Below are positions 52,857-58,623 of a stretch of DNA of 64,000 nucleotides, one piece after another. How positions within the stretch are numbered: the first letter of the stretch is position 1; every line of letters starts with the position of its first letter. The translations under genes were made by a program, and so were the position numbers. The stretch comes from a virus: positions 64,001-128,000 of the IMG/VR virus record IMGVR_UViG_3300018876_000008, one strand, 5' to 3'. The notes beneath the pieces are model-generated. The model was not told the DNA's origin. It saw only the letters and a list, made by a program, of their open reading frames with translations, and searched no databases.

Positions 52857-53747
52857 TTATCTAAATAATGTCACATGTCCGTGAGTTTTTATCCCATAAC
52901 CAGGACGAGTAGCCTCTAATTTCCAAGTATAAACACCATCGGGACAATAATAATCTCCACTATATGGTAAAAACCAACTCAATTCGGGAAGAGGTGCCCC
53001 CGTCCAATTAGCTAAAGGATAGTCAGTTCTCCATACTAAATTGCCCCATCTATCGTAAATTTTCATATCCCACGTTAACCAACAATCAGCTTCAGTTACT
53101 ACCCTAAATGATTCGTTTTTACCATCTCCGTTTGGTGTAAATGCGTTAGGAATATATAAGTCATCATCAACACATGGAACAACTGGTCCGTCATTGGATG
53201 AATTACAATCAGGGTTTGTTAGTGAGAAGGTAACTATGTTATTTAAGGGTTCCACATCAGGATAGTCAAAGTTTCCTAAACCACTATCACTTTCGTATGG
53301 CCAAGTATTACTATCGTTTATTTGAGTTATGGAAAGAATCCAACATTGTTCATCAAAGAATCCATCATTTATTGCCTCCTCCCAACAAAAGCTGGCGTCT
53401 GAACCGGTAACAAATGCGTCTACAATGTTAAAAGTAACTTCATCACCTGTTTGTAACCAAGGACCTGGTGAATTAATATTGACTAAAGGAAAACTTACAG
53501 GGTAGATTAAAAGTGCCCAACCATTATCATAAAAACACGGATATGGGTAGGTATCTAATTGTGGTTCTGTAGTTATACCTAATAAAAATTCACCGATTGA
53601 ATCAGAAGGTGAACCACAATTTACTCCTGAATTCACGTATAAAGTAATATCCATGGTTTGAGGGTCAAATGACACAATTTCCATATCACATTGACCTTTC
53701 ACTATGAATGAAATAAATAATAAAATTAATGTAAGTGGGTTTTTCAT
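52857..53747 (-). CDS. Secreted protein with T9SS type-B (gliding-motility-associated) C-terminal domain
   Basis: Signal peptide; YIPNAFTPNGDGKNESF...IYDRWG...GVY...GHVTLFR. Confidence 0.85.
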   Translation of the reverse strand: MKNPLTLILLFISFIVKGQCDMEIVSFDPQTMDITLYVNSGVNCGSPSDSIGEFLLGITTEPQLDTYPYPCFYDNGWALLIYPVSFPLVNINSPGPWLQTGDEVTFNIVDAFVTGSDASFCWEEAINDGFFDEQCWILSITQINDSNTWPYESDSGLGNFDYPDVEPLNNIVTFSLTNPDCNSSNDGPVVPCVDDDLYIPNAFTPNGDGKNESFRVVTEADCWLTWDMKIYDRWGNLVWRTDYPLANWTGAPLPELSWFLPYSGDYYCPDGVYTWKLEATRPGYGIKTHGHVTLFR

Positions 53748-55603
53748 CTGAATATAGTTATATGTCCCCTTTCTTCAATTATCAATGCACTATTTACTTT
53801 CTTACCTGTAACTACATAAACGTATAGCCCGTCAGAAACGTAATGATTTCCTCCATTCACACTTCCATCCCAATAAGGATAGTCGTCAAAATTATCACCA
53901 GTATTGTAATACACTTCATTTCCCCATCGGTTAAAAATTCTAAATTCAACGTTTTCCCAACAGTTTAAATCATAGATTAGTTTCCACACATCGTTAATTC
54001 CATCATTATTTGGTGTAAAAGTATTAGGAATATGGATAGTTGTCCAATCAGGACATATTAAACCTGGTGGGTCTTCATCACAAGGTAATCCCGTTTCACA
54101 GTCAATCCAAATTTCTTGTACAACATACTCGGTAACTGTGTCAGTTAGGTATATGTAATTATCAATAAAGACTGTATCTGTAAGATACTCTGTTATGTAA
54201 AGGGTGTCAGTTATGAATTCTGTTTCAGTTAAATAAATCGTATCTGTAACTACTTCTGTAATATACAGTGTGTCTATAATGTATTCTGTTTCTGTAATAT
54301 AGAGTGTATCTGTGACGTATTCTGTGATATATTCATAAACAGTATCTGTTACATACTCTGTTACATACTCAGTTATATATTCATAAACTGTATCCGTTAA
54401 GTAAATATAATTATCCACATACTCAATTAAAGTATCAGGTGGTGACTCAACATAAAGAGTGTCTATAATAGTATCAGTTATAAAGATAGAATCGATTTCA
54501 TAGATATAAGTTACCGTTTCAATTTCAATAGTATCTGGCTCACAAACCTCAGGACAGATTAAATCTTCTAATTCATCAGGATAGTAAACGGTAGTGTTAT
54601 TGTTACCCGTTACAATCTCATCATTAACATTATCAACAGTCATTGTAAAGAAACTACCTAATGCGTCATATTCAAAGAAAGGTGAGGTGAATTGTTGACC
54701 CTCACCTACAGGAATATCATACCCACCAAACATAGAATCATCAAAGCATTGATAGTAATCTTCATTCCATATCTCAATACAGTAATTTGTGATAGGTTCA
54801 TTACCGTAATTGTAAACGGTATAAGTTATTTGATATGAGGGAATATCACCAATACACCCTATTTCAAATTCTATATTATCAATAACAGCATCAGGGGCAT
54901 CGGGAGGACAATCAAAATCGGGAGAGGCTACTGCCGCACCGGGATTCTCATCTCTACATAGGTACCAAGAATTATTACAATTTTGGTCTTGATATGTATT
55001 TGGTGCGAAATCGGGATTAGTTGACGAACTTGCCCAACCTCCGTTTCCAACATACCAAGAAGAACCATAATTTACCTGCCACACAACAAATTCAATACAC
55101 TCATCTTCAGATAACCAATAATCTATTAAGTCATCACCACACTCGGCAAGTGGATATGGATATGTATCATAATCTCCAGGTGGGTTTAAAGGGATATTTA
55201 CAACATCTCCTGTTACTAAACCGTCTCCCATTATCTCTTCCTGAAAAGTAACAGACGCTGAAGGACTGTACCACCAACCCGGATGATTATTATCGGGATT
55301 CTGACCCAAGTAGTATCCATTAGCATCCCATCCTGGACTACATGGTGGTAATCCAAATGTTTCATTAAAATCTTCAATGACTTCATTATCGGGATTTATA
55401 GGTTCAGGAAGATGATAACCTATCTGTAATTGTGTAACTTTACCGTTTACACCACCAGGACCGTTTGATAAACATCCTAGTGAATTAATTACCTCAATGG
55501 TGACTTCGTATGTGTTAAGGTCAACAGCGGTAATTGCGACATCACATTGTCCTTGTATAAAAAAGGCATGTAGATATGCTATAAGAAATAATAGTCTTTT
55601 CAT
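53744..55603 (-). CDS. Secreted repeat protein with T9SS type-B C-terminal domain
   Basis: Signal peptide; TDTxYxTEY repeats; IPNTFTPNNDGIND...IFNRWG...GHITIFR. Confidence 0.85.
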   Translation of the reverse strand: MKRLLFLIAYLHAFFIQGQCDVAITAVDLNTYEVTIEVINSLGCLSNGPGGVNGKVTQLQIGYHLPEPINPDNEVIEDFNETFGLPPCSPGWDANGYYLGQNPDNNHPGWWYSPSASVTFQEEIMGDGLVTGDVVNIPLNPPGDYDTYPYPLAECGDDLIDYWLSEDECIEFVVWQVNYGSSWYVGNGGWASSSTNPDFAPNTYQDQNCNNSWYLCRDENPGAAVASPDFDCPPDAPDAVIDNIEFEIGCIGDIPSYQITYTVYNYGNEPITNYCIEIWNEDYYQCFDDSMFGGYDIPVGEGQQFTSPFFEYDALGSFFTMTVDNVNDEIVTGNNNTTVYYPDELEDLICPEVCEPDTIEIETVTYIYEIDSIFITDTIIDTLYVESPPDTLIEYVDNYIYLTDTVYEYITEYVTEYVTDTVYEYITEYVTDTLYITETEYIIDTLYITEVVTDTIYLTETEFITDTLYITEYLTDTVFIDNYIYLTDTVTEYVVQEIWIDCETGLPCDEDPPGLICPDWTTIHIPNTFTPNNDGINDVWKLIYDLNCWENVEFRIFNRWGNEVYYNTGDNFDDYPYWDGSVNGGNHYVSDGLYVYVVTGKKVNSALIIEERGHITIFR

Positions 55604-57909: not shown

Positions 57910-57914
57910 GTCTG

Positions 57915-57988
57915 TGGACCTTGTAGGGCTCGAACCTACGACCTACGCATTATGAGTGCGGTGCTCTAACCAACTGAGCTAAAAGTCC
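57915..57988 (-). tRNA. tRNA(CAU), probably Ile2 (lysidine) rather than Met
   Basis: Loop CTCATAA; body resembles bacterial Ile2 tRNAs; lacks initiator features. Confidence 0.85.
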
Positions 57989-58086
57989 GTTATTCAAAAA
58001 TATCTACTCCACTTAGACTCCGTCTTTCGACTTGTAGGCGTGAGATTTGACGCCTCGTTGTTCGGTTGTTAAACCTATCTAAGAGC

Positions 58087-58203
58087 GGGGGAGTAGGGGA
58101 TTCGAACCCCCACCTCTTCTCAACAAGCCTAATCGTATCTCGTAACTAGTATGATATTTTCGGCCTTATAGTTGGAGCGTCGTACCACTTTGACTAACTC
58201 CCC
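58087..58203 (-). ncRNA. tRNA-like RNA with greatly extended anticodon arm (117 nt)
   Basis: Acceptor GGGGAGT/ACTCCCC, D-loop with TGG, T-arm GGGGG-TTCGAAT-CCCCT, ~60 nt central arm. Confidence 0.75.
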
Positions 58204-58211
58204 GTATTTAG

Positions 58212-58285
58212 TACACCCATCAGGATTCGAACCTGAGACCGTCTGCTTAGAAGGCAGATGCTCTATCCAGCTGAGCTATGGGTGC
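58212..58285 (-). tRNA. tRNA-Arg(UCU)
   Basis: Anticodon loop CTTCTAA. Confidence 0.95.
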
Positions 58286-58443: not shown

Positions 58444-58549
58444 ATGTGGTACTAATTTATAATTTCAAATAACGTTTTTGTCTTTCAACAATGTAAATGT
58501 ACGATACAAAAGATTAAGTAACAACTATTTTTTTAAAATAATTTAATTG

Positions 58550-58623
58550 TAGGGATGGAGGGACTTGAACCCCCGACCTTGACTATATAAGAGTCCTGCT
58601 CTAACCAACTGAGCTACATCCCC
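58550..58623 (-). tRNA. tRNA-Ile(UAU)
   Basis: Anticodon loop CTTATAT; A73. Confidence 0.88.

Follow-up and report, generated by a model that had tools for sequence, protein, structure and literature searches.

The locus described here, on the minus strand of a 64,000-nucleotide stretch of a virus record in IMG/VR (the window), probably belongs to a conserved, phage-specific family of non-coding RNAs built from two domains: a non-decoding and probably dimerising tRNA mimic, followed by an effector or processing domain. The original prediction had flagged 117 nt as a tRNA-like RNA with a long arm in place of the anticodon stem-loop. That stretch is real, but the extent of the unit was missed, as about 81 nt more belong to it. 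We collected the two-domain unit from 131 loci in IMG/VR and marine metagenomes, amounting to 89 distinct sequences. Among the collections searched it is restricted to phage DNA, and it is present in at least three phage lineages with unlike gene neighbourhoods. As judged from the aligned sequences, the two-domain architecture is under purifying selection.

Architecture and conservation of the two domains

The tRNA-like domain aligns end to end with the Rfam tRNA model RF00005, scoring 38.1 bits against a gathering score of 29 bits (E = 8e-6 in 2.7 kb), and the alignment passes over a 58-nt insertion at the position of the anticodon stem-loop. In addition to the features in Table 1, the domain has U8, A9, G26, and a variable region of 4-7 nt. 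The 5-bp anticodon stem and the 7-nt loop with U33 and an anticodon are missing, both in the window and in all other family members; with a tRNA body but no anticodon, the RNA should be unable to decode. ARAGORN with default settings makes no call on the element. The replacement arm is made of three helices, CUC-AAC/GUUGAG, AGGCC/GGCUU, and (A)UAUC/GAUA(C). Its single-sequence fold energy is unexceptional (z = -0.68), so that support for the arm has to be drawn from covariation among relatives.

Most of the structural detail given in the original prediction was borne out. All seven acceptor pairs are Watson-Crick, the T-arm and the unpaired C discriminator are as described, the long interrupted hairpin with its three named helices and no canonical 7-nt loop is seen in the sequence, and the G3-U70 pair is indeed absent, the window having G3-C70. 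The D-arm, called perfect, instead has three pairs and an A13.C22 mismatch, and the spacing to the adjacent tRNA-Arg gene, given as 8 nt, measures 7 nt.

Table 1. Features of the two-domain unit and its immediate neighbours in the window.
Feature	Coordinates	Strand	Description	Basis
tRNA-Arg(UCU)	58211-58285	-	upstream, co-oriented	ARAGORN; Rfam 70.4 bits
Leader UAAAUAC	58204-58210	-	A/U-rich, 7 nt, between tRNA-Arg and mimic	sequence
tRNA-like domain	58087-58203	-	117 nt	RF00005 38.1 bits; covariation
Acceptor stem	58197-58203 with 58088-58094	-	7 Watson-Crick pairs, GGGGAGU/ACUCCCC
D-arm	58179-58194	-	3 bp and an A.C mismatch; G18 and G19 in loop
Interrupted arm	58119-58177	-	59 nt, in place of anticodon stem-loop	sequence; covariation
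ACUAGU palindrome	58145-58150	-	within 13-nt apical loop; candidate kissing-loop contact
T-arm	58095-58111	-	GGGGG / UUCGAAU / CCCCU, canonical loop
Discriminator C	58087	-	unpaired	sequence
Conserved 3' domain	58006-58086	-	about 81 nt, four-way junction	MFE fold; conservation
P1a	58083-58086 with 58006-58009	-	GCUC with GAGU
P1b	58077-58082 with 58013-58018	-	covaries
Hairpin P2	58064-58075	-	covaries
Junction GAACAACGA	58055-58063	-	nearly invariant
Hairpin P3	58037-58054	-	GGCGU/ACGCC, nearly invariant sequence
Junction UACAA	58032-58036	-	nearly invariant
Hairpin P4	58022-58031	-	covaries
tRNA-Met(CAU)	57914-57988	-	17 nt downstream of 3' domain	ARAGORN; Rfam

The 3' domain begins at the base directly after the discriminator. 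This first base, G+1, is invariant, and a G.U pair stands at the base of P1a in 71 of 81 aligned sequences; the discriminator that precedes G+1 is variable. Changes in P1a are one-sided, and this helix is unpaired in 7-9 of the 81. The domain is present after every tRNA-like member found and never after an ordinary tRNA (131 units). A search of Rfam 15 with the 3' domain at E <= 10 returned zero family matches, ribozymes included. The two-domain family gave no match in Rfam 15 as such a family, the tRNA body alone matching RF00005.

Several variations and candidate contacts were considered within and around this domain. The P3 loop, 8 nt long (CAAAUCUC), grows to about 20 nt in some lineages (L133, L182, L190, L149, and L108 are included) by means of a mini-hairpin, which is often palindromic itself (GUCGAUCGAC, GUCAUAUGAC). 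In sequences with the expanded P3 loop, the 3' terminal GGAGU becomes GGGAU or GGGGU. A pseudoknot between the P3 loop and the terminal GGAGU is at most a candidate: the variants correlate, but no consistent pairing could be found by hand, and the correlation is probably phylogenetic. A contact like that of a T-box, in which the conserved UGGN close to the 3' terminus would pair with an NCCA end, was discarded, as the N shows no covariation with the discriminator on inspection. On reading, the arm sequences fitted neither the consensus of a GAAA-tetraloop receptor nor that of a kink-turn. Two contigs, those of L132 (Ga0210296_1085154) and L141 (Ga0181400_1002428), stop exactly at the 3' end of the 3' domain; these are likely assembly breaks at an 80-nt stretch common to co-occurring phages, not ends of a genome or of an RNA.

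A structure alignment of 81 units was scored over 38 pairs, taken from the stems of the tRNA body and from the 3'-domain helices. Overall, 95.7% of cells are paired and compensatory changes are seen at 22 of the 38 pairs; in 500 shuffles such values were never reached, and slid registers come nowhere near. The compensatory changes fall in all seven pairs of the acceptor stem, three of four in the D-stem, and four of five in the T-stem, besides helices P1b, P2, and P4 of the 3' domain. Residues U8, G53, T54, T55, C56, A58, and C61 are invariant in the 81 units, while A14, G18, G19, and A21 are nearly so. They include the tertiary-contact nucleotides U8, A14, G18, G19, T54, T55, C56, and A58, and the elbow of the tRNA body is intact. 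The original prediction had proposed a homolog search with covariation analysis; the tRNA body does covary across the 81 aligned units, and the arm within the window's subgroup.

The nearest homolog of the window unit, on contig IMGVR_UViG_3300048113_001121 (L004), differs from it at 2 of 58 positions in the tRNA core, 15 of 59 in the arm, and none of 81 in the 3' domain. Within the window's subgroup of 23 sequences, the middle and apical arm helices covary (for example, U-A to C-G and G-C to A-U), and the register of the basal helix varies among sub-subgroups. Sequence comparison thus portrays an arm that changes fast yet retains its shape. The discriminator is C, A, or G in close relatives of the window unit, and C, A, G, or U family-wide, and some members carry acceptor mismatches, A.A or A.C, at 3:70 to 5:68. 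Both observations argue against one synthetase identity, and we infer that the RNA is non-decoding and is not charged by one particular synthetase.

Of the 89 distinct sequences, 85 have a 6-nt palindrome in the insert, in most cases at the apical loop. The palindrome takes the forms GCUAGC (32 of the 89 inserts), ACUAGU (30, including the window), UGAUCA (13), GAUAUC (4), GAGCUC (4), and UCGCGA (2). The half-sites covary as three symmetric pairs, with counts of GC 35 and AU 29 for one pair, CG 57 and AU 7 for another, and UA 61 and GC 4 for the remaining one. Computed energies for the 6-bp self-duplex run from -4.2 to -8.3 kcal/mol, and in the case of the window arm the predicted energy of an extended duplex dimer is more favourable than that of two separate monomers by 8.4 kcal/mol. 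Since six adjacent bases of this kind are unable to pair inside one molecule, the simplest reading is that two copies pair with each other. The pattern of half-site changes suggests dimerisation via the palindromic loops, although a dimeric protein or a site acting at the DNA level could be another source of the palindrome.

Distribution and genomic setting

An 18-mer taken from the 3' domain occurs in 24 IMG/VR contigs, and a tRNA-shaped RNA with a long insert lies upstream of it in all 24. Looser patterns added 6 IMG/VR contigs and 106 stretches from marine metagenomes. Across the 131 units, the tRNA-like part is 97-146 nt in length and its insert about 40 to 90 nt. No copy of the unit turned up in 185,579 bacterial and archaeal genomes, scanned twice. 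With blastn, three family members had no match among 50,697 cultured-phage records, nor had the 3' domain any in E. coli genomes. We did not find a description of the family in the literature searched; a catalogue of candidate structured RNAs from IMG/VR (PMC10690425) may include the motif.

In related phages, other tRNA-shaped genes carry inserts of 45-60 nt without the conserved 3' domain. They are found at L044:19567-19683, at L070:13121-13246 and 13540-13670, and at L014:19429-19550. Both L070 copies have the same acceptor stem and a tRNA-Leu-type D-arm but unlike inserts, and one of these inserts has a loop able to pair with the variable region. The insert-bearing genes of L044, L070, and L014 probably constitute separate mimic families.

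The window comes from an IMG/VR virus record of 169 kb whose completeness is put at 56%; GC content is about 31%. Two adjacent ORFs of 296 and 619 aa (window 52857-55603, minus strand) end in CHU_C type IX secretion sorting domains. By their sequence, these domains suggest a Bacteroidota host, and also suggest that phage proteins bearing them may be routed through the host T9SS.

In the window, the unit sits in a row of eight ordinary tRNA genes, and the array has a tRNA-Ile(UAU) at 58549-58623 (minus strand) in addition to the CAU tRNA of Table 1. Family-wide, a tRNA gene lies less than 30 nt upstream, nearly always at 6-11 nt, in 37 of the 89 distinct units; in 25 distinct units this upstream tRNA is Arg-UCU, nearly always at 7-9 nt. 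Of 59 loci of at least 5 kb, 29 have zero tRNA genes. Co-processing with tRNA-Arg, which the original prediction had thought probable, is therefore plausible for the 25 units close to Arg-UCU but does not hold in general, half of the longer loci being free of tRNA genes. Leaders of the type AAA(U/C)A(U/C) stand ahead of the unit in all lineages, even where no tRNA is nearby, and such an A/U-rich stretch may serve as an RNase P leader.

The unit is co-oriented with its neighbours in every case, and at least three recurring gene neighbourhoods were distinguished. In one, UvdE and small proteins precede the unit, which is followed by a tRNA nucleotidyltransferase gene (25 loci) and then by probable structural genes. 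In another, which is that of the window's lineage, genes for a metallophosphoesterase, a sigma factor, and GMP reductase lead into the tRNAs and the unit; of these proteins, the phosphoesterase is the only one identified in the window itself. In the third, a RuvC-like resolvase gene precedes the unit, and genes for a gp32-like SSB, a primase, and a UvsW-like helicase follow it. No protein gene is common to all three. The phage tRNA nucleotidyltransferase (L185:292-1053 and 24 other loci) belongs to one phage lineage, is short at about 240-250 aa, and has the head domain, with the RNA-binding region matched only weakly and below threshold; the gene begins about 90 nt past the unit. The record from which the window comes, at its 56% completeness, has no match to tRNA nucleotidyltransferase or RNA ligase families.

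In L003, L013, and L006, whose phages are closely related to that of the window, the unit is missing between tRNA-Arg and tRNA-Met, so that the unit must be viewed as an accessory module, dispensable for the phage lineage. In the nearest homolog, the 5' fragment of a tRNA-Leu gene (CCGAAUGGUGGAAUUGGAAGAC...) lies just past the unit, at L004:12501-12640, joined to the sequence found right behind tRNA-Arg in L003 and L013. By its sequence this fragment looks like a deletion scar, which indicates that tRNA arrays in these phages rearrange. Related phages encode some unusual tRNAs as well. ARAGORN calls one with anticodon CUA, of the amber suppressor type, at L014:14072-14144, and others with a 4-base 'anticodon', CCUA, in an 8-nt loop at L017:4937-5012 and also in L018, L019, and L020. 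These calls hint at recoding or frameshift-suppressor tRNAs.

Known RNAs and alternative readings

Phage T4 makes two stable RNAs of similar size, likewise as an adjacent pair, species 2 (rnaD, 119 nt) and species 1 (rnaC, 139 nt). Their genes come directly after tRNA-Arg in the phage tRNA cluster, as does the window unit. Like the mimic, rnaC has an acceptor stem and a T-arm, but in T4 the RNA that bears the T-arm is the downstream one. Both T4 RNAs, unlike the mimic, fall below the RF00005 threshold, and T4 has no counterpart of the invariant four-way-junction domain. Homology of the unit to rnaC or rnaD was rejected, since no similarity was seen on reading and blastn against the phage collection, which includes T4, was empty. 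The tRNA-like domain of tmRNA also resembles the mimic, with an acceptor stem, a T-arm, and a long helix at the position of the anticodon arm. The mimic differs from tmRNA in its real D-stem, in its lack of G3.U70, of a conserved tag frame, and of pseudoknots, in its length of 117 nt, and in its 3' extension.

The mascRNA of MALAT1 and the TMERs of murine gammaherpesvirus 68 are non-decoding tRNA shapes joined to a second functional RNA, and in both the tRNA modules allow tRNA-processing enzymes to set the RNA ends. In contrast to the unit, they come from eukaryotes or herpesviruses, have anticodon arms of normal or short length, and carry no palindromic loop. The order of parts in MALAT1 is also unlike that in the unit. 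YrlA, a bacterial Y RNA-like molecule, combines a tRNA-like module (T-arm, D-arm, and acceptor-like stem) with a long protein-binding helix; its connectivity is permuted and it ends in the long helix, unlike the mimic. The YrlA family is absent from the Rfam matches to the unit at E <= 10, and we found no Ro/Rsr gene context around the unit. GOLLD and ROOL often occur in phages beside tRNA genes. They are 3-4 times larger than the unit, have no tRNA body, and form separate Rfam families without a match to it. A paper that treats them together with OLE describes these large ornate bacterial RNAs as forming homo-oligomeric RNA-only complexes, and mentions kissing loops and phages (PMC12286853).

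The closest parallel for a domain that would make the 3' end comes from theta ribozymes, which, like the 3' domain, start at an invariant G past a phage tRNA-shaped RNA (PMC10879173). Further shared traits are a variable base ahead of that G, a G.U pair formed by it, mostly Bacteroidota hosts, and a link to tRNA nucleotidyltransferase; phages with theta ribozymes beside tRNAs are enriched in genes for this enzyme (PMC10879173). Theta ribozymes, however, lie behind real tRNAs, whereas the 3' domain lies behind the anticodon-less mimic only. HDV-like ribozymes, theta included, have a nested double pseudoknot (P1, P1.1, P2, P3, P4) and a catalytic C in J4/2, and cleave 5' of G1; the 3' domain has neither the double pseudoknot nor a catalytic-C junction, its four-way junction being closed by its own ends. 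The hatchet ribozyme has a P1 that is a hairpin with its own loop (PMC4604424). This hairpin lies at the 5' end and P2-P4 follow, with 13 conserved nucleotides, while P1 of the 3' domain pairs the 5' and 3' ends.

We consider it doubtful that the 3' domain is a maker of 3' ends, whether as a new small self-cleaving ribozyme or as a guide for a nuclease, that directs a cut between the discriminator and G+1. The CCA-tailed, anticodon-less tRNA dimer freed in this way would be the active molecule and would soak up a tRNA-binding factor of the host, for instance a synthetase, a modification enzyme, or a nuclease of a defence system. The variable base before the junction with the domain, the invariant G+1 in its G.U pair (71 of 81), and junction strands as nearly invariant as those of a catalytic core would all fit, as would the HDV-like theta ribozymes in the same place beside phage tRNAs (PMC10879173), the tRNA nucleotidyltransferase gene directly downstream in 25 loci, and the metallophosphoesterase gene upstream in the window's lineage. 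But the fold resembles neither HDV-like nor hatchet ribozymes, Rfam yields no ribozyme family at E <= 10, the domain is never found behind an ordinary tRNA, and the invariant sequence of P3 suits a contact with protein or RNA better than it suits a ribozyme helix. Slightly less probable again is a cis-acting element of the transcript, be it tRNA-type punctuation between messages or an element for antitermination or stability of downstream genes. Constant co-orientation and tight packing between neighbours speak for such an element, and in one lineage the upstream gene stops 8-12 nt before the unit and the next starts 13-95 nt after it; the genes that follow are structural in one lineage and gp32/primase in another. 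However, the downstream genes are unlike between lineages, the window's lineage has its unit between tRNA genes and not ahead of an mRNA, and punctuation alone would need neither a near-invariant 80-nt domain nor a covarying palindromic loop.

Three further readings were rejected. The original prediction had offered, as an alternative to a mimic, a tRNA with a small protein-spliced intron, and had suggested running ARAGORN with introns allowed. Such an intron would interrupt the anticodon loop, and its removal would give a decoding tRNA. With introns allowed, the program reports Tyr(AUA) for the window, the intron being 41 nt long, and Ile(UAU) for the nearest homolog, with one of 35 nt. The call in the window is forced and implausible. 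The two calls disagree on anticodon and splice sites, and a good 5-bp stem remains in neither case. Whatever is excised, the sequence lacks a plausible anticodon loop of 7 nt, Rfam has no match to group I introns or any other intron family at E <= 10, and no bulge-helix-bulge was seen on reading, the arm's bulges being of 1 nt and 3 nt and not 4 bp apart. Moreover, it is the insert that has conserved structure, under selection, and a loop palindrome, while the discriminator and acceptor stem are not conserved, and we regard an intron as very improbable. A miniature tmRNA-like molecule with a short tag frame in the arm is more improbable still. The order of acceptor, D region, long helix, and T-arm resembles the tRNA-like domain of tmRNA, and the window contains a frame reading ...ENIILVTRYD-stop, with synonymous Arg codons (AGA, AGG, CGA, CGG) in relatives and stop-to-stop changes; another subgroup reads KAMLAA-stop. 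Yet covariation in the helix accounts for the apparently synonymous changes; 13 of 70 sequences have lost the frame, L201 has a 1-nt loop deletion, and the frame is unlike between subgroups. The 3:70 pair, G3-C70 in the window, varies and the family shows no consistent G.U there, no pseudoknots were seen, and neither ARAGORN nor Rfam calls tmRNA on the element. Judged by tmRNA-ribosome structures, a molecule of 117 nt probably has too short an arm for a codon to reach the decoding centre. That the locus is a pseudo-tRNA in decay, disrupted by an insertion, is scarcely credible. Arrays do rearrange, the nearest homolog has the tRNA-Leu 5' fragment after its unit, and close relatives have no unit, but 89 distinct sequences in several phage lineages show compensatory changes in their helices, and the insert, far from being unconserved, is conserved in structure.

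Proposed mode of action

The two-domain RNA with a non-decoding tRNA mimic thus remains our preferred reading. As a structural description, the term 'tRNA mimic' used in the original prediction stands, since the RNA is conserved, is under selection, and combines the body of a tRNA with the absence of an anticodon. The roles that it had entertained, a decoy for anticodon nucleases or synthetases or a ribosome ligand, are conjectural; a nuclease decoy is argued against by the lack of any anticodon-loop mimic to cut, and one synthetase identity by the variable discriminator and the acceptor mismatches. We propose that host tRNA enzymes would use the tRNA body as a handle, with a cut by RNase P at the A/U-rich leader, and that RNase Z or a CCA-adding enzyme may act at the discriminator. 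Such processing would excise the RNA from a polycistronic or tRNA-array transcript and stabilise it. Two copies would pair through their 6-nt palindromic loops, as a kissing loop or as an extended duplex. The near-invariant 3' domain would contact a highly conserved partner, which might be a host or phage protein or an RNA, or else would mature the 3' end. More speculatively, the 3' domain could be a new class of catalytic or ligand-binding RNA. It might, for example, self-cleave between the discriminator and G+1 and so free a CCA-tailed, anticodon-less tRNA dimer that captures a dimeric host tRNA-binding factor, as a counter-measure or take-over device of the phage; we think this unlikely.

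Non-decoding, tRNA-shaped phage RNAs have been known since species 1 and 2 of T4, and to our knowledge no function has been established for either. The present family is a cleaner handle on such RNAs. It is widespread in ocean phages, in several lineages, and the unit often stands alone, which shows that it is not a mere by-product of tRNA arrays. It also offers two sharply bounded features that can be mutated, the covarying self-pairing loop and the nearly invariant 80-nt junction domain. The target of the invariant domain, once found, would explain why phages keep tRNA bodies without anticodons, and could reveal a new RNA-based way of handling the host tRNA machinery.
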